This document shows, one piece after another, positions 33,119-60,721 of a stretch of 64,000 nucleotides of DNA (the stretch's first letter is position 1; every line of letters starts with the position of its first letter). Source of the DNA: Bradymonadia bacterium (GTDB lineage Bacteria > Myxococcota_A > Bradymonadia > UBA7976 > UBA1532); assembly GCA_046290225.1 (NCBI GenBank), contig JBKAGE010000003.1:33244-97243 (forward strand). Reading direction: 5' to 3'. Under the pieces are notes generated by a model. It ran no database searches. It was not told the DNA's origin and worked only from the letters and a program-made list of their open reading frames with translations. A program made the translations under genes and the position numbers.

Positions 33119-34767
33119 GCGACACCATTTCGTGCAAGGTCAACGGCGTCGACGTCGAGGTGCCCAAAGGCACCTCGGTCTACGAGACCGCCAAGGCCGC
33201 GGGATTCGTCATCCCCCACTTCTGTTACCACCCGGGGCTCTCCCGGCCGGCGAACTGTCGCATGTGCCTCGTCGATGCGTCGAACAGCCGCAAGCCGATC
33301 CCCTCGTGCTACATCGACGCCGCCCCCGACGCCGAGTACACCACCGACTCCGAGCACGTGCACGAGATGCGTCGCGCCATCTTGGAGTTCATCCTGCTCA
33401 ACCACCCCGTCGACTGCCCGATCTGCGATCAGGCCGGCGAGTGCGAGCTGCAGGACAACTACTTCGATCACTCGCTCCAGACCAGCCGGCTTGTGACCCC
33501 CAAGGTCCACAAGCCCAAGGCCACGCCCCTCTCGGACAAGATCATGTTCGACGGCGAGCGTTGCATCGTCTGCACCCGCTGTGTGCGGTTCTGCGACGAG
33601 GTGGCCAAGACCAGCGAGATCGGGGTGATCAACCGGGGTGAGAAGTCGGAGATCGCCATCTTCCCCGGCCAGGATCTCTCCAACCCCTACCAGATGAACA
33701 TCGTGGACCTCTGCCCTGTGGGGGCCCTCACCTCCCGTGACTTCCGGTTCAAGATCCGGGTCTGGTTCATGGAGAGCGTGGAGAGCGTCTGCGATCACTG
33801 CGCCCGCGGCTGCAGCGTGCACCTCGACCATCACAAGGGCGAGGTCATGCGGTATCGCCCTCGGGAGAACCGCAATGTGAACGATTGGTGGGTCTGCGAC
33901 GAGGGTCGCCTGAGCTACCAGAAGATCCACGAGCGCCGCGTGCTCGCCCCCGTGGTGAGCCAGAACGGCAAGCCCCGCCGGGCCAGCTGGACCGACGCCG
34001 TCGACGCCATCGAGACCGCCATGGCCGGTGTCGCCTCCGATGCCGTGGCCATCGCCGTGAGCGCCACGGTGAGCGTCGAGACCGCCTACGCGCTCCGTCG
34101 CCTACGGGAAGAGGTCCTGCCCCAGGCCCAGGTGTTCCGCACCGGTCGCGCCGACGGCACCGATCAGGACGACATCCTGATCCGCAACGACAAGAACCCC
34201 AACGCCCGGGGCCTCGAGGCCGTCTTTGGGCCGTTGCCCGACGAGGTCGCCCTCGCCGGCGCGGTGTCGAGTCGCAAGATCACGCACGTCATCGCCTTTG
34301 GCGACACTGTGCACGCCACCACCCTCGCCGGCGCCCAGTGCGTCATCGTGGCTGGGGTACACGCCTCTGACGCCGTGAAGGCTGCCAAGGTGGCCCTGCC
34401 TCTGCAGAGCCACGCCGAGCACGACGGGGTCTTTGTGAACTTCGACGGCCACGTGCAGCGGTTCCACGGCGCCATCAGCCCTGTGGGTGAGGCCGAAGCT
34501 GGCTACGCCATCGTGAGCCGCATCGCTGGGGCCCTCGGCGCCACCCTGAAGTGGCGGACCGCTGGCGCGGTCTTCAAGGCGCTGGCCTCGGAGACCATGG
34601 CCTTCTCGGGCATGACCCACTTCAACCTGGGCAGCACCGGTCGTCCCCTGGTGACCGAAGCGCCTCAGAGCGAAGCCGTCTCCGAAGAGGCCTCCGAAGA
34701 CGCCCAAGCCAGTGACGCCGCCGAGCAGCCTGCAGAAGAAGCACCTGTCGAAACGACCGAGGCTTGA
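33115..34767 (+). CDS. nuoG: NADH-quinone oxidoreductase subunit G (short form, 550 aa)
   Basis: N1b PHFCYH...NCRMC...PSC; N5 NHPVDCPICDQAGEC; N4 CIVCTRC...CPVGAL; N7 CDHCARGC...CDEGR. ATGA overlap with nuoD. Confidence 0.92.
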   Translation: MSDTISCKVNGVDVEVPKGTSVYETAKAAGFVIPHFCYHPGLSRPANCRMCLVDASNSRKPIPSCYIDAAPDAEYTTDSEHVHEMRRAILEFILLNHPVDCPICDQAGECELQDNYFDHSLQTSRLVTPKVHKPKATPLSDKIMFDGERCIVCTRCVRFCDEVAKTSEIGVINRGEKSEIAIFPGQDLSNPYQMNIVDLCPVGALTSRDFRFKIRVWFMESVESVCDHCARGCSVHLDHHKGEVMRYRPRENRNVNDWWVCDEGRLSYQKIHERRVLAPVVSQNGKPRRASWTDAVDAIETAMAGVASDAVAIAVSATVSVETAYALRRLREEVLPQAQVFRTGRADGTDQDDILIRNDKNPNARGLEAVFGPLPDEVALAGAVSSRKITHVIAFGDTVHATTLAGAQCVIVAGVHASDAVKAAKVALPLQSHAEHDGVFVNFDGHVQRFHGAISPVGEAEAGYAIVSRIAGALGATLKWRTAGAVFKALASETMAFSGMTHFNLGSTGRPLVTEAPQSEAVSEEASEDAQASDAAEQPAEEAPVETTEA

Positions 34768-54539: not shown

Positions 54540-54597
54540 TATAACCCGCGGCTTCGAGGTTCTCCGAGGACCTCCCACAGACGCTCTGGAGCCGCTG

Positions 54598-55458
54598 ATG
54601 TCTGCCCCCACCGTGCACCCCATCGCCCTCAGCCCAGGTACTCCCCTCGTCGAAGCCCTCGAGGCGCGCTGTGCTCAGCTGCAGATCGCCGATGCCCGCG
54701 TGCTGATCCGCGGAGGGCTCACCGCCGTGACGCTACAGCCCACGGTGGATGATCCACCCGTGACGCTCTCCGGACGCCTGCACTGTGTGTATGCCGAGGG
54801 CTGGCTCAAGGGCGGTGAGCTGGAGATTCACGGCCTCGTCTCGTGGGCAGGGCCGGGCATGCCTGGCAGCCTCGGTGGGATCTTCGAGGCGGCGGTGTGT
54901 GATCACATCGAAGTCATGGTGAGCCCATGGAGCCTCGCCGACAGTACGAGCGCGACACCTGCGAAGCCGACGAAGGCCCGCCGCGGAAGTGCTGCCCCCA
55001 AAGAGGTTGCACCGAAGAAGGCCAGCCGAAAGACCCCAGAGAGCCCGGTGGTGGATCTCTCGGAGGAGATGGACGCCCTGCAAACACCCGCAGCGCCTCC
55101 ACGACGGGCTCCCAAGTCAACGCCAGCACCCGAGCCGGCGGCCTCAACGGGTTGGGGCGCCGCGGTGGCGCAGTCGAAGAAGACGAGCACTCCGCGCCGC
55201 AGCACGCCTCGGGGGTCGAAGCCCACAGCAGTGGATCCCAAGGGCGTGAACGGAGATGAGCTGCAGGTGGGCGATCTGCTGCAACACCCTCGCTTTGGCC
55301 GCTGCCGGGTCATGCGCCCTGCAGAGCGGGGCAAGGTGAAGGTGCGGCTCCCTGCAGGCCGGCTCACCGATCTGCATCTGAAGGTGGTGCGCCTGATTCG
55401 GCAGCCCGACGAGAACGGAGCCCGGGTCTTCAAGGTGCTGATCGCACGGCGAGACTGA
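54598..55458 (+). CDS. PPC/DUF296-like N-domain, basic linker, small beta-barrel C-domain
   Basis: IALSPGTPLVEAL...IHGLVS...GG is a loose PPC match. P/A/K/T linker, then VGDLLQHPRFGRCRV. Confidence 0.6.
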   Translation: MSAPTVHPIALSPGTPLVEALEARCAQLQIADARVLIRGGLTAVTLQPTVDDPPVTLSGRLHCVYAEGWLKGGELEIHGLVSWAGPGMPGSLGGIFEAAVCDHIEVMVSPWSLADSTSATPAKPTKARRGSAAPKEVAPKKASRKTPESPVVDLSEEMDALQTPAAPPRRAPKSTPAPEPAASTGWGAAVAQSKKTSTPRRSTPRGSKPTAVDPKGVNGDELQVGDLLQHPRFGRCRVMRPAERGKVKVRLPAGRLTDLHLKVVRLIRQPDENGARVFKVLIARRD

Positions 55459-55568
55459 AACGCCCACCAAGGCGTTCGGCCACAGCCACCTTGCCCACCC
55501 GACGTCTGGCGATGTACGCTTCCTTCACACATTCACTGTCCATGTCAGCCACGAGAAGGAGGGAGCTC

Positions 55569-56537
55569 ATGGCGACCGATCCCGAGAAGCGGGGGATGCA
55601 CCGCCGTTCTTTCATGCAGACACTTGGCGCAGCGGGCGCGGTGGGGGCCGCGACGACGCTGGTGCCCACGCTCAGCTCTGCCAACCCCGATGAAGAAGCC
55701 GGCTTCGAGGTCGTGGACCTCGCAGCTGAAGGCTTCCCCGAAGATGAGGCCCCTGTCCCCTTCCCTGGCACCGCCGATGAGTACAACGCTCTCGAGCTCC
55801 CCGAGATCGAGCGCCCGGTGCTCGACGAGGGCTTCGAGTATGGCGACGACGCTCTGGTGGACGAGTGGCTCGAAGCCATCGACGCCGGTGACGACATCGA
55901 CGCCCTCGATGCCCGCGATCTGGCTCGGGAGATCATCGCCGAGCAAAAGGCCGAGCTCGCTGCTCGTCGGCGAGAGGTCTACGTCAAGCGTACCTCTGAG
56001 CAGAGCCGCAAGCGCGCAGTGCGCACGGAGCTCCAGGCCCGGCGCCAGCAAGAGGCCGCCCGTAAGCGGGCCGTACGCGCCAGCCAGGAAGAGCAGCGCA
56101 AGAGCAGCCGGAACCGCTTGCGAGAAGAGCACGCCAAGTCGGACGCCCCTGCTCAGGTGCGCCGCGAGGCCCACCAGAAGCGGCGTCAGCGCAACCAGGA
56201 GCAGCGGGTGAAGCAGTCCGCTCAGCGCACTCTGGAGCGACGCAGTTTGGAGAAGGAGCGCAAAGCCCTCGCCGCAGATCGCGCGGAGTGGCGCGAAGCC
56301 CGTGCCGAAGAGCGCGAGGCGATGCAGGCACGCCGGCGAGAGGCCAGGGCCAAGCGCCTCACGTTGCGCCGCCGGGCAGAGCAGAACTTGAAGTCGGAGC
56401 GCCAGTTCGCGGAAGAGAACCAGAAGATGGGCCGCGCGCAAGAGCAGGGCTCCAAGCGCCGGGCTGCTGAAGAGAAGCACAAGCGCGCCGAGCTGGATCG
56501 CGACCGCGAAGAGCACGCCAAGCAAGAGATCCGGTGA
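55569..56537 (+). CDS. Tat-exported protein with acidic segment and 14 ExxxK motifs (candidate precursor A)
   Basis: Strong RBS AGGAGGGAG, twin-Arg HRRSFM, h-region and SSA cleavage site. Acidic middle, Arg/Glu/Gln-rich C-terminal half. Confidence 0.85.
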   Translation: MATDPEKRGMHRRSFMQTLGAAGAVGAATTLVPTLSSANPDEEAGFEVVDLAAEGFPEDEAPVPFPGTADEYNALELPEIERPVLDEGFEYGDDALVDEWLEAIDAGDDIDALDARDLAREIIAEQKAELAARRREVYVKRTSEQSRKRAVRTELQARRQQEAARKRAVRASQEEQRKSSRNRLREEHAKSDAPAQVRREAHQKRRQRNQEQRVKQSAQRTLERRSLEKERKALAADRAEWREARAEEREAMQARRREARAKRLTLRRRAEQNLKSERQFAEENQKMGRAQEQGSKRRAAEEKHKRAELDRDREEHAKQEIR

Positions 56538-57970
56538 CGGCAGACACACCGAGACATCGCCTCGTCGATGACTTTCTGTCACCAAACCAGGTGAGCACCC
56601 TGAGAGCGTTGGTCCTTCACCAGGCTGACGCTGCCGACTGGGCTCAGAGTGACGTGGGTCGCGTCGGTGAGCTGCTGGCCACCGAACACCCCGCGCTCAA
56701 CGCCCTCGTGGCAAAGCTCGACACGCTCATCGGTTTGCCGACCGCGCTCGAGCCCTTCGTCCGCTGTCGCATCGCCGAGGCAGGTGCCAGCCATCCGGCC
56801 CACCTCGACACATATGTCATGGATGGCTGTGCGCTGGTGGCAACGGCGCTGGTGTATCTCGACGCAGTGGAAGGCGGTCACACAGTCTTCGAGTCGGTGG
56901 AGCCCCCAATGGCCGTAGCGCCCCAACCTGGGCGGGCGCTGGCCTGGCTCAACGTACGCGGTGACGGTCGGCCTGATCCACGCTCCGAGCACGCCATCGA
57001 GGCGGTGAAATCGGGTACCCGGACCACCTTGACCTGGTTTGTGTATGCCACGCTCGAGGCTGCTCAAGAGGCAAGGCTGCGAGGCCTCGAATCTGATGCA
57101 GCACCGCTCATCGCCGATCTCGACGCGCCCACCACCGGGCCTCGGTTCTACTGCATCGACGATGGTGTGCCTCAGGAGACCGTACGCTCTCTCTATGATG
57201 CCTGCACTGCTCGAGGCTTGACCTTCGTGCGGGTGAGGCCTCGAGAGGTGGATCCCCGCCGTGGCCCCCTGGAGGTTGGCGCTCTGCTCTACACACCCTC
57301 GACGAGCATGGTGGCAGAGCGCATGGAGCAGCGCCTCTGGCGACCGGGCGTGGTGACGTTCCATCGCCGCCCGGAGGGACCATTCGTCAGCACGCTCAAC
57401 CCGCTGCTGGCTTTCGAGCGCGCTGGTTTGCCCGTCCCTCGCTGGCTCCAGGTAGAGACAGCCCCAGGAGACAAACTCGAGGGCTGGGTGGAGTGGCTCG
57501 GTGGCTTGCCGATTGTGGTCAAGTCAGGCGGCGGTGAGGGCGGCGTAGGCACCCTGCGGGCCGACTCCATGCCGGCCTTGAGATCATTGCTTGATCTACT
57601 CCTGCACCAGGGGCGCACGCCCACACTGATGGAGTATGTGCCCGAAGCTGTGCACCTGCGCCTGGTCGTCGTCGGTGACGATGTGGTGACCTGTTATCGC
57701 AACCCTGTGCGCTCAGGCGATTTCAGGAGCGAGCCCAGCATCGACGCTGCCGACTACGACATCGAGGCCGAGCCTGACATCATCGAGTTGGCGGTTCGAG
57801 CCAGCGAGGTGGTCGGGTACGCCTTTGCCGGGGTGGACGTCTTGATCGATCCTGAGGGCGGTCGATGGCTGCTCGAAGCCAACTTCCCCTGCTACTTCCC
57901 CCAAGCAGAGACCTTCGGCGCCGACGTCGCTGGTGCCATGATCGACCATCTCACGCGGCTGGCCCCCTGA
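56534..57970 (+). CDS. 2OG-Fe(II) oxygenase (prolyl-4-hydroxylase-like) fused to RimK-type ATP-grasp ligase
   Basis: Oxygenase: HLD, TALVYL...EGGHTVF, PGRALAW, EH...V.SGTR. Ligase: LPIVVK, GEGGVG, MEYVP, RLVVVG, GDFRS, AGVDVL, LLEAN. GTGA overlap with the upstream gene. Confidence 0.9.
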   Translation: MTADTPRHRLVDDFLSPNQVSTLRALVLHQADAADWAQSDVGRVGELLATEHPALNALVAKLDTLIGLPTALEPFVRCRIAEAGASHPAHLDTYVMDGCALVATALVYLDAVEGGHTVFESVEPPMAVAPQPGRALAWLNVRGDGRPDPRSEHAIEAVKSGTRTTLTWFVYATLEAAQEARLRGLESDAAPLIADLDAPTTGPRFYCIDDGVPQETVRSLYDACTARGLTFVRVRPREVDPRRGPLEVGALLYTPSTSMVAERMEQRLWRPGVVTFHRRPEGPFVSTLNPLLAFERAGLPVPRWLQVETAPGDKLEGWVEWLGGLPIVVKSGGGEGGVGTLRADSMPALRSLLDLLLHQGRTPTLMEYVPEAVHLRLVVVGDDVVTCYRNPVRSGDFRSEPSIDAADYDIEAEPDIIELAVRASEVVGYAFAGVDVLIDPEGGRWLLEANFPCYFPQAETFGADVAGAMIDHLTRLAP

Positions 57971-58037
57971 CGGGCGAGATTGCCCCACCCCCCACCTGCC
58001 GGTACGCTCATCCCAGACTCAACTCGAGGAGGGAGAG

Positions 58038-58496
58038 ATGTCGGAGAAATCATCCACACCCAACACCGAAGGACTGGATCGGCGGGCATTTGTCACCACG
58101 ATGGCTGCCGCTGGGGCTGTAGTGCTGGCGCCACAGCTGGCCCACGCTCAGGTCGATGATCAGGCTGGCTTCGAAGAAGGCGCCCCCACCGAGAAGGCGC
58201 CGCAAGAGGGTGCCGCGGATACACCTGCAGCCGCAGCGAAGCGCCGTCGGGCGGAAGAGGCTCACAAGCGCAAGAAGCAAGCCGCCCCGACACAGCGGGA
58301 GGAAGCGCAAAAGCGCACACCCATGGTGAAGCGACGCCGGCTCGAGCAGGCGAAGAAGGCCCAGACCGAAGAGCAGACGAAGAAGCGCGCCGCGCCCACT
58401 GACACCCCCCAAGATGCTCAACCTGAAGGGCAGTCTCAGGGTCGTCACCGCGAGGCTGCCCGCAAGCGGGGCAAGCGCTCTGCCATCAGGAAGTAG
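58038..58496 (+). CDS. Tat-exported small protein with 5 ExxxK motifs (candidate precursor B)
   Basis: RBS GAGGAGGGAG, twin-Arg DRRAFV, AHA cleavage site, DDQAGFEE. Motifs EEAHK, EEAQK, EQAKK, EEQTKK, EAARK. Confidence 0.85.
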   Translation: MSEKSSTPNTEGLDRRAFVTTMAAAGAVVLAPQLAHAQVDDQAGFEEGAPTEKAPQEGAADTPAAAAKRRRAEEAHKRKKQAAPTQREEAQKRTPMVKRRRLEQAKKAQTEEQTKKRAAPTDTPQDAQPEGQSQGRHREAARKRGKRSAIRK

Positions 58497-59941: not shown

Positions 59942-60721
59942 ATGAACCACCCAACAGCTGCTGCACTTCTCTTGTTGACCGCTGTGACGACGCACGTGGG
60001 CTGTGATGACGATGACACATCGTCGACCAACATGCCTGATGCCGCGCAAGCTGCCGAATCCGACGCCTCCATCGATGCCAGCCTTCCCGAACCTGACGCG
60101 ATGATGATGCCGGATGCCGATCTCCCCGACATGGCGCCACCCGCACCCACCGACGTGGAGCTCGCCGCGGACTGGCTCACGGGTGACTTCAACAGTCGAG
60201 CCCAGGCCATGGCCGATCGGCGCTACTTCGACGTACACCTCTACGCGATCCAGATCTGGCCTGATCGTGAAGACGGCGCGTGGATGTATGTGCAGCAGTC
60301 CCGAGACGACAATGACGACGGCACTTACGAGGCACCCTATCGCCAACGTGTCTACTGGGTGCACGGTGAAGGCGATGGGGTAGTCAGTACGGTGTACCGC
60401 ATCGAAGACGAAGACCAGTTCGTCGACCCCTGGAACGACCTGTCGGTACTCGACGCCCTCAGCGAAGAGAGCCTCACCCTCGCCGAAGGCTGTGATGTCC
60501 GCCTCACCCGGATGGGCGAGACCTTCGTCGGTGGCACTGAAGGCACAGCATGTCGACTGAGCTTCGGTGGCTACGCCACCTCTGCGGTCACGCTCTCCGA
60601 AACCGGCTTGCGGAGCCTCGATCTGCTTTACGACGACGGCGGGAACATCATCAATGGTCTCACCGAAGACTCCACACCGTACACCTTCGACAAGCTCGAG
60701 AACTTCCCCCTCGCTCAGTGA
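59942..60721 (+). CDS. CpcT/CpeT family beta-barrel lipoprotein
   Basis: Lipobox HVGC. WLTGDFNSRAQA, IWPDR..GAWMYVQQ, PYRQRVY, GCDV, C...FGGYATSAVTL, PYTFDK. Confidence 0.85.
   Translation: MNHPTAAALLLLTAVTTHVGCDDDDTSSTNMPDAAQAAESDASIDASLPEPDAMMMPDADLPDMAPPAPTDVELAADWLTGDFNSRAQAMADRRYFDVHLYAIQIWPDREDGAWMYVQQSRDDNDDGTYEAPYRQRVYWVHGEGDGVVSTVYRIEDEDQFVDPWNDLSVLDALSEESLTLAEGCDVRLTRMGETFVGGTEGTACRLSFGGYATSAVTLSETGLRSLDLLYDDGGNIINGLTEDSTPYTFDKLENFPLAQ

Follow-up and report, generated by a model that had tools for sequence, protein, structure and literature searches.

A candidate helix-stapling system: an oxygenase-ATP-grasp fusion enzyme and its family, linked across bacterial phyla to ExxxK-repeat proteins with twin-arginine signals

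Introduction

In a Bradymonadia bacterium of the Myxococcota_A, a single gene encodes a 2-oxoglutarate (2OG)- and Fe(II)-dependent oxygenase fused to an ATP-grasp ligase, and it is flanked on both sides by genes for proteins that carry a twin-arginine signal and repeat the motif Glu-x-x-x-Lys (ExxxK). The three genes, referred to here as gene A, the enzyme gene and gene B, lie in a window of 64,000 nucleotides (positions 33,244 to 97,243 of contig JBKAGE010000003.1, assembly GCA_046290225.1), the whole stretch of DNA that was analyzed. The question raised by this locus is what such an enzyme does to its two neighbors. The original prediction, made from the sequence of the window, was that the ligase joins the side chain of each Glu to that of the Lys four residues further on, stapling an alpha-helix, that the oxygenase adds hydroxyl groups, and that the products are exported by the twin-arginine translocation (Tat) pathway.

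Here we report that A and B are very probably substrates of the enzyme encoded between them and that enzymes of this family adjoin ExxxK proteins in many phyla. The reading to which we are led is that a multi-phylum family of RimK-like ligases, often fused to an oxygenase, staples helices with tens of Glu(i)-Lys(i+4) lactams in each chain, in proteins that bear a leader made of a RiPP (ribosomally synthesized and posttranslationally modified peptide) recognition element (RRE) and a twin-arginine segment and that are exported by Tat and released by signal peptidase. We put the probability of this reading as a whole at about 0.5.

Results

Proteins A and B are built around ExxxK repeats

The features of the locus on which the argument depends are as follows, with positions given in the window.

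55569..56537, + strand: gene A, 322 aa; predicted substrate with a twin-arginine signal, an acidic region and an ExxxK-repeat region
55569..55682, + strand: twin-arginine signal of A, residues 1-38, with RR at 12-13 and SSA before the likely cleavage site
55689..55709, + strand: DEEAGFE motif of A, residues 41-47; common to B; candidate docking motif
55974..56522, + strand: ExxxK-repeat region of A, residues 136-318, 14 units
56534..57970, + strand: enzyme gene, 478 aa; 2OG-Fe(II) oxygenase fused to ATP-grasp ligase
56546..57088, + strand: 2OG-Fe(II) oxygenase domain of the prolyl 4-hydroxylase (P4H) type, about residues 5-185, with H90, D92 and H153
57131..57967, + strand: RimK-like ATP-grasp domain, about residues 200-478, with K330, D435, E448 and N450
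58038..58496, + strand: gene B, 152 aa; second predicted substrate
58254..58466, + strand: ExxxK units of B, residues 73-143, at five places

The original prediction counted 14 tandem ExxxK units in A and 5 in B, and these counts held, the five places in B comprising six E/K pairs. Within residues 121-322 of A, 14 of the 17 lysines stand four residues after a glutamate (E+4), compared with 2.7 ± 1.4 expected by composition, and 0 of 2,000 shuffles reached 14; only 3 of the 46 arginines in the same segment occupy that position. The corresponding figure for B is 6 of 13 lysines (1.2 ± 1.0 expected; 0 of 2,000 shuffles reached 6). As a base rate for ExxxK open reading frames (ORFs), we used the genome from which the window comes (8.58 Mb; 92,180 ORFs), in which A ranks first. 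Under a strict criterion (five or more ExxxK units, spanning a segment in which no fewer than 40% of the lysines stand at E+4), 12 of these 92,180 ORFs qualify, two of them being A and B. The other 10 were ruled out as substrates, being ordinary proteins without repeats.

The ligase family is linked to ExxxK proteins in many phyla

A scan of one genome per species yielded 80 related loci. Going by their record names, these loci belong to Myxococcota, Acidobacteriota, Chloroflexota, Planctomycetota, Bacillota, Verrucomicrobia, Actinomycetota and several proteobacterial groups. We found an adjoining ORF for a protein with an RRE-like domain and twin-arginine helix, an adjoining ExxxK-rich ORF, or both, in 61 of the 80 loci, comprising 40 of the 47 loci with the fusion and 21 of the 33 loci with an ATP-grasp-only match, and the adjacency occurred in both orientations. 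The enrichment of Tat-plus-ExxxK ORFs beside homologs of the fusion, which had been proposed as a check on the original prediction, was thus observed. All-against-all BLAST comparison of the ORFs revealed only one neighbor family that is conserved across many loci, and a hidden Markov model (HMM) of its N-terminal part detected 51 ORFs in 49 of the 80 loci. Under the strict ExxxK criterion, 47 ORFs in 46 of the 80 loci qualified; the related loci together cover 0.646 Mb and 6,750 ORFs, among which only ~0.7 would be expected at the rate of the window genome. We regard it as established at the sequence level that this ligase family is linked to ExxxK proteins and that the link is conserved in different phyla. 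Because the same pairing of enzyme and ExxxK protein recurs in so many bacterial phyla, the system is probably an undescribed one that cross-links each Glu to its Lys, in a manner resembling that of the recently described corallotide.

The oxygenase is a less constant component, a point that had previously been missed. An oxygenase domain is present in 50 of the 80 related loci; in locus L056 it is encoded by a separate gene beside the substrate gene, and most stand-alone ligases with ExxxK neighbors have no oxygenase within 4 kb, so that it is dispensable in many loci. Since these stand-alone ligases keep their ExxxK neighbors, the ligase appears to be the constant partner and the oxygenase an add-on.

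Some loci depart from the simple arrangement. The myxococcotal locus L011 (2452-8307) has three tandem RRE/ExxxK genes, each with an extra conserved C-terminal region beyond the repeats, and two ligase genes, one of them stand-alone and the other fused to an oxygenase; the same C-terminal region occurs in L014 and L015. A paralog of the enzyme in the window genome (L002, 1432-2880, - strand; G000 contig C76; 32% identity) was left out of consideration, having no ExxxK or RRE neighbor. Its ATP-grasp motifs look degenerate by reading, and a small lipoprotein-like ORF lies downstream of it.

The ExxxK motif has one spacing, one order and one pair of residues

Motif statistics were computed for the tails of 51 neighbor proteins from 49 loci. 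Glu stands at position -4 of 587 of the 1,082 tail lysines, compared with 132 expected. The histogram of E-to-K spacings has a single peak, at +4 (587, compared with 68-179 at every other spacing), and no enrichment was found in these tails for any spacing in which Lys precedes the acidic residue. E-to-R pairs at +4 are depleted (59), and D-to-K pairs show no peak there (34). The units follow the consensus A-x-E-Q-x-x-K; 36% of them have Gln at +1, four times background, and Pro makes up only 0.1% of the three inner positions, compared with a background of 2.6%. As many as 43 units were present in a single tail, that of L016. At aligned sites in five ortholog groups, E and K were both present at 332, both absent at 197, and present singly at 44 (E only) and 47 (K only), although this apparent joint loss is inflated by the choice of sites, the relatedness of the sequences and the low complexity of the alignments.

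Confinement to +4 and the near absence of Pro suggest that both residues of a pair lie in one helix. A helix held by salt bridges would accept Arg, whereas a reaction between the side chains would demand Lys and Glu themselves, in a fixed order and at a single distance, as the pattern shows. A very regular tail is that of L048 (7674-8789, - strand), a heptad of ExxxK units in which 33 of 36 lysines stand at E+4.

The enzyme joins a prolyl 4-hydroxylase-type oxygenase to a RimK-like ligase

The fusion of an oxygenase to a RimK-like ATP-grasp domain had been read from the translation of the enzyme gene, and database comparisons bear it out for both halves. PF08443 (RimK-like ATP-grasp) matches residues 313-472 (E 3.9e-14). 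The best NCBIfam match, TIGR00768 (rimK_fam), scores 73.2 bits, under its cut-off of 143.4, and NF007764 scores 53.6 bits, under its cut-off of 331, which places the enzyme below the scores required of the RimK family; with the graspetide maturase model TIGR04187 it scores 28.7 bits against a cut-off of 350 and so falls outside the curated graspetide synthetases as well. The enzyme's own sequence has no Pfam oxygenase match at E <= 1. PF13640 is a precomputed match in 22 of the 108 homologs listed, and a family profile built from an alignment of 21 homologs matches prolyl 4-hydroxylases of known structure (7zsc, 2jig and 5hv0; E 1e-15 to 1e-12) over residues 4-175. The family profile also matches structures of RimK (E 3e-31, 111 bits), PsnB (E 7.7e-12, 47.6 bits), ArgX/LysX (E 2e-10) and MdnC (E 0.0075, 17.9 bits).

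An AlphaFold2 model of the enzyme had a mean predicted local distance difference test (pLDDT) score of 93.1. Foldseek placed RimK first among its structural matches (E 1.3e-16; template-modeling score to the target [TMt], 0.76), followed by ArgX/LysX (TMt 0.78-0.80) and PsnB, a clear structural relative (E 2.3e-14; TMt 0.65-0.69). In the 21-homolog alignment, D435, E448 and N450 are invariant and K330 is kept in at least 90% of the sequences; the HPxHxD...H columns of the oxygenase (H90, D92 and H153) are conserved, giving the HxD...H iron triad. Judged from these columns, the catalytic residues of both domains are intact.

Of 401 genomes sampled from the phylum of the window, 38 have a homolog of the enzyme. 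Another genome of the phylum has a 49%-identical homolog with one in-frame TGA (G254:C150:872-2302). In Viridibacterium curvum (P0038, L034), the order of the domains is reversed, with the ATP-grasp domain first and the oxygenase last, in what looks like an independent fusion.

Most relatives of A and B begin with an RRE-like domain

The twin-arginine sequences are HRRSFMQTLGAAGAVGAATTLVPTLSSA in A and DRRAFVTTMAAAGAVVLAPQLAHA in B, each followed by a hydrophobic stretch and an AxA-like site. Signals of this kind had been predicted for both proteins, and both can be read; the signal of A scores 19.3 bits with TIGR01409, over the cut-off of 16.7, and 20.1 bits with PF10518, under the cut-off of 22.7, whereas that of B has the RRAFV motif but scores 13.2 bits with TIGR01409, under the cut-off. 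After the signal comes an acidic motif, which reads DEEAGFE in A but DDQAGFEE in B, and both proteins contain EAARKR; each of these resemblances, also part of the original prediction, is evident in the translations.

What had been missed is that in most relatives the presumed substrate opens with a PqqD/RRE-like domain, the twin-arginine segment being internal. The architecture of the neighbor family is an N-terminal domain of ~90 residues, then A-P-P-x-G-x-x-R-R and a hydrophobic helix often ending in AxA, and then the ExxxK tail. In the alignment of the family, one Arg of the RR pair is invariant and the other is kept in at least 90%. A profile of the N-terminal domain matched the PqqD structures 3g2b (E 1.8e-5) and 5sxy (E 7.6e-4). 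Of 14 proteins, 8 matched the Pfam PqqD family weakly, at E < 0.1, and a single one exceeded the cut-off; no curated NCBIfam family fits the neighbor proteins. In the AlphaFold2 model of the domain from L003, the closest related locus, three helices come after three strands (mean pLDDT by block, 94-97 for residues 21-80), and the top Foldseek matches of this model were TbiB1, a lasso B1 protein, CteB and SuiB, at weak E values (5.5e-3 and above) and TM scores to the target of 0.65-0.69. Profile and model together suggest that the N-terminal domain of the relatives has an RRE-like fold.

Protein A is 38% identical to the RRE-bearing neighbor of L003 over 282 aa (E 3e-24), and in this alignment A starts directly at the twin-arginine segment. 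By sequence comparison, A is the ortholog of that neighbor, and we take A and B to be versions that have lost the RRE domain. The shortened form without an RRE, as in A, is also present in L014, L026 and L072. Small ExxxK proteins are encoded directly upstream of the fusion enzyme in L027 (2859-3848), L038 (3276-3848) and L058 (3417-3848), all of them ending in PRVPKVI; from their sequences, they appear to represent a cytoplasmic form of the system. Because some relatives lack any signal, export is not universal.

As an independent sample, we searched 1.84 billion representative sequences with the profile of the N-terminal domain alone and 2961 proteins came within E <= 1e-10. Of the top 150 out of these 2961, 128 had tails of at least 40 aa, 90 of the 128 being enriched in ExxxK, and 1,086 of 2,063 lysines stood at E+4, compared with 266 expected. 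A minority, including P0160, P0174, P0204 and P0254, have the same RRE-like domain and twin-arginine helix with Cys-rich tails in place of ExxxK. Given tails of this other kind, the RRE/RR-helix module may be a general leader for other cores and enzymes.

A modeled interface falls on the motif shared by A and B

One further feature comes from structure prediction.

58152..58187, + strand: residues 39-50 of B, VDDQAGFEEGAP; modeled docking strand, the only confident contacts

We modeled a complex of the enzyme, ATP and residues 38-152 of B, judging it by a mark that 116 of 157 solved complexes reach, as do 2 of 215 mismatched pairs. Three runs scored 0.71, 0.71 and 0.00, and the best of three controls scored 0.02; the runs agreed in at least 0% of contacts, and the pLDDT of the partner was at least 42. 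The modeled interface lays residues 39-50 of B on residues 206-244 of the enzyme (strand 230-236), in the N-domain of the ATP-grasp fold, and coincides exactly with the AGFE motif common to A and B.

With regard to export, the window genome encodes TatC (230 bits), and A has the twin-arginine motif, the hydrophobic region and the AxA-type site by which a Tat substrate would be recognized in sequence. Two of the neighbor proteins, those of L048 (7674-8789, - strand) and L056 (4836-5534, - strand), end in PEP-CTERM sorting signals.

Arrangement and surroundings of the locus

The coordinates and junction sequences agree with the predicted arrangement of three co-oriented genes. The stop codon of A and the GTG start codon of the enzyme gene overlap by four bases, GTGA (in GGTGAC), and 67 bases separate the enzyme stop from the start of B. 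Nearly identical ribosome-binding sites (RBSs) had been noted for A and B, and the same sequence was indeed read before both.

55557..55565, + strand: RBS of A, AGGAGGGAG, 3 nt before the ATG at 55569; identical to the RBS of B
58027..58035, + strand: RBS of B, AGGAGGGAG, 2 nt before the ATG at 58038

A promoter scan of the locus gave 0 promoter-like sites, and a terminator scan gave 6 terminator-like sites, compared with 1.8 ± 1.3 in shuffled sequences, none of them convincing for the operon. Pfam matches among nine flanking ORFs were to TatD-like, glutaredoxin, PCC-like, MazG, CpeT and carboxyltransferase families, and no protease, transporter or beta-lactamase was detected by Pfam in these nine. 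The gene just downstream of the MazG gene (59942-60721, + strand) encodes a member of the CpeT/CpcT family (PF06206, E 1.6e-31), here in a noncyanobacterial genome. Upstream of A, the gene at 54595-55458 (+ strand) has a weak match to the PCC domain (E 0.005) and a long middle part rich in Pro, Ala and Lys; it is not conserved beside the enzyme in other loci.

Discussion

Comparison with known systems

The closest published system is corallotide, a group 15 graspetide of Corallococcus exercitus (Carter et al. 2026; PMC13097080). Its precursor, of roughly 22 kDa, has five KxxxD repeats, in which the ATP-grasp enzyme CorB links Lys(i) to Asp(i+4) by isopeptide bonds, after which the PF13640 oxygenase CorC 5-hydroxylates the cross-linked Lys. 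The enzymes bind the N-terminal domain of the substrate, CorB needs and copurifies with CorC, and the material aggregates once the N-terminal domain has been removed. Formation of a lactam followed by 2OG-dependent hydroxylation thus has an experimental precedent, which would apply to the present system by analogy. The two systems are alike in pairing an ATP-grasp ligase with a PF13640-type 2OG-Fe(II) oxygenase (physically associated there and fused here), in having a large substrate with repeated acid/Lys pairs at i,i+4, and in the myxobacterial host.

They differ in the following respects. The corallotide motif is KxxxD in the context V-K-h-h-h-D-D-P, in five copies, whereas the motif found here is ExxxK in a Pro-free context rich in Ala, Gln and Glu, in 5 to 43 copies. 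CorB is a separate protein that matches TIGR04187, whereas the ligase examined here is RimK-like, reaches only 28.7 bits with that model and is fused to its oxygenase (CorB and CorC being compared by their description). The beta-lactamase CorD of corallotide has no counterpart in the nine flanking ORFs, nor does such a family recur across the related loci. The substrate here, unlike that of corallotide, has a twin-arginine signal and, in the relatives, an RRE domain. Group 15 is restricted to Corallococcus according to the same source, in contrast to the spread over several phyla seen here. The system had originally been held to differ from the known graspetide groups; the order of the residues, the lineage of the ligase, the fusion and the Tat signal do set it apart, but the chemical idea is less unprecedented than it then seemed, given corallotide.

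Graspetides in general, such as microviridin and plesiocin (made with MdnB/C and PsnB), likewise depend on ATP-grasp enzymes acting on side chains of a precursor whose core can repeat, and an adjacent precursor with repeated acidic and nucleophilic residues, as expected for a graspetide, is present here (14 such repeats in A and 5 in B). The present system is unlike them in that the ligase is outside the curated synthetase family, the substrates are protein-sized and predicted to be exported, and the leader is an RRE domain, a signal peptide or both. No precursor with the LADAGL motif of the neighbor family was present in the searched part of a 20,891-row RODEO table of graspetides (PMC13097080). 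In sequence and fold, the closest enzymes are RimK, the S6 glutamate ligase, and LysX and ArgX, which act with LysW, and these also activate a carboxylate on a protein. The enzyme studied here nevertheless scores under their cut-offs, and its partners are neither S6 nor LysW, ending in basic sequences (..KQEIR in A and ..SAIRK in B) where S6 and LysW are acidic; a fused oxygenase, ExxxK repeats and an export signal have no counterpart in those systems. The known RREs (PqqD, TbiB1, the lasso B1 protein, CteB and SuiB) resemble the N-terminal domain of the relatives in profile or fold, but here the domain sits in the presumed substrate and not in an enzyme or a free chaperone, and, again unlike the known RREs, it precedes a hydrophobic twin-arginine segment.

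Lactams between Lys at i and Asp at i+4 are in use in synthetic stapled helices (PMC9285742), which have the same acid/Lys geometry as that proposed here but are made chemically. In the literature searched, we came across neither a natural enzyme that staples helices through E(i)-K(i+4) nor a description of this system, passages of the Makarova 2022 survey of graspetides and of the 2025 RRE survey included; an earlier in silico mention may exist in Iyer et al. 2009, on amidoligases. The available part of a 2010 paper from the Iyer group mentions ATP-grasp genes beside JmjC-type dioxygenases in myxobacteria and goes no further.

Proposed mechanism

We favor, with moderate confidence and partly by analogy with corallotide, the view that the ligase forms a lactam between Glu(i) and Lys(i+4) and that the fused oxygenase then hydroxylates the product. 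In the cytoplasm, the RimK-like ATP-grasp domain would dock on the substrate past its signal peptide, at the acidic AGFE motif. In each A-x-E-Q-x-x-K unit, the ligase would convert the gamma-carboxylate of Glu to an acyl phosphate and close it onto the epsilon-amine of the Lys at +4, producing i,i+4 lactams along a helix, 14 in A and about 5 in B. The P4H-type oxygenase would then hydroxylate the cross-linked unit, most likely on the Lys side chain if corallotide is a guide, and the modified, partly prefolded protein would leave through Tat, its signal being cut at SSA/AHA. Chemistry that uses ATP, Fe(II) and 2OG would have to occur in the cytoplasm, and a cross-linked chain would suit Tat better than threading; that such a chain cannot be threaded unfolded would explain why the twin-arginine signal is conserved. 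The Glu-Lys isopeptide bond, the target of the oxygenase, the order of the steps and the Tat route are the parts of this scheme that we infer.

Several observations weigh against it. Neither kind of neighbor was found in 19 of the 80 loci within the DNA covered, and the 32%-identical paralog in the window genome also lacks an ExxxK or RRE neighbor. Both an RRE and a signal are missing from the neighbors in L027, L038, L042 and L058, and A and B themselves lack the RRE domain of most relatives, the HMM of the neighbor domain giving 0 matches genome-wide at E <= 0.01. Of the 13 lysines of B, 7 lie outside the motif. The modeled complex scored 0.00 in one run of three, the fold of the partner is uncertain (pLDDT 43-44), and the model placed no ExxxK unit in the active site. 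The nearest match of the ligase is to RimK (111 bits, compared with 47.6 for PsnB and 17.9 for MdnC), an enzyme that adds free glutamate. Finally, E(i)-K(i+4) is a favored salt-bridge spacing in ordinary helices.

Alternative explanations

One alternative is that A and B are not modified at all but are ordinary charged single alpha-helices, adjacent to the enzyme through co-regulation only, and that the enzyme acts on a small molecule or some other protein. Helices of the ER/K type are common, and the 19 loci without a neighbor would fit. We nonetheless consider this very improbable: going by record names, the genes keep their adjacency, in either orientation, in Myxococcota, Acidobacteriota, Chloroflexota, Planctomycetota, Bacillota and Proteobacteria, Arg is depleted at +4 even in the Arg-rich protein A, most neighbors have the predicted RRE-like fold, and the complex model scored 0.71 in two of three runs (0.00 in the third), compared with 0.02 for the best control, with agreement between runs in at least 0% of contacts. 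If the proteins are modified, the resemblance of the ligase to RimK raises the alternative that free glutamate, or another amine or amino acid, is added to the Glu of ExxxK or to a terminus, as by RimK or TTLL enzymes, the Lys serving for recognition only. RimK (E 3e-31 by profile; E 1.3e-16 and TMt 0.76 by structure) and LysX/ArgX (TMt 0.78-0.80) are, after all, the best matches and ligate free amino acids to protein carboxylates, and TIGR00768 is the best NCBIfam model, at 73.2 bits. That score is, however, under the cut-off of 143.4, and a Lys needed only for recognition poorly explains the depletion of Arg at +4, the lack of Asp at the Glu position and the joint loss of E and K. Neither A nor B ends in an acidic sequence of the kind found in S6 and LysW, and corallotide shows that an ATP-grasp enzyme paired with a PF13640 oxygenase can make i,i+4 lactams. 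On balance, we judge ligation of this type unlikely.

A cross-link of another kind seems to us about as unlikely, or a shade more so. It could be an ester between Glu and a hydroxylysine produced beforehand, or a network of Glu/Lys bonds between repeats or between chains. Graspetide ligases are reported to form esters as well as amides (PMC13097080 and PMC8939145). Prior hydroxylation should not be needed, though, where stand-alone ligases without an oxygenase within 4 kb keep their ExxxK neighbors, and in corallotide hydroxylation comes after cyclization. A network would be in keeping with the aggregation of corallotide upon removal of its N-terminal domain, and the predicted export, together with the PEP-CTERM signals of two relatives, would suit a role in a matrix; with the spacing held at +4 and Pro excluded, however, the pattern speaks for a pair within one helix. 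Having weighed these alternatives, we retain intra-helical Glu-Lys lactams, formed before any hydroxylation, as the preferred explanation.

Significance

The product of this pathway is perhaps a protease-resistant protein of an extracellular matrix or coat. If our reading is correct, macrocyclization through side chains would extend from small peptides to exported, protein-sized products, and an ATP-grasp lineage outside the graspetide synthetases would have taken up the same chemistry, giving a natural helix-stapling machine that evolved separately. Chemical i,i+4 lactam stapling is a standard means of stabilizing helical peptides, and an enzyme that performed it on a portable A-x-E-Q-x-x-K tag would be a useful biocatalyst. 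The system would also provide a role for a neighbor family that comprises 2961 representative clusters (E <= 1e-10) and lacks a curated model.

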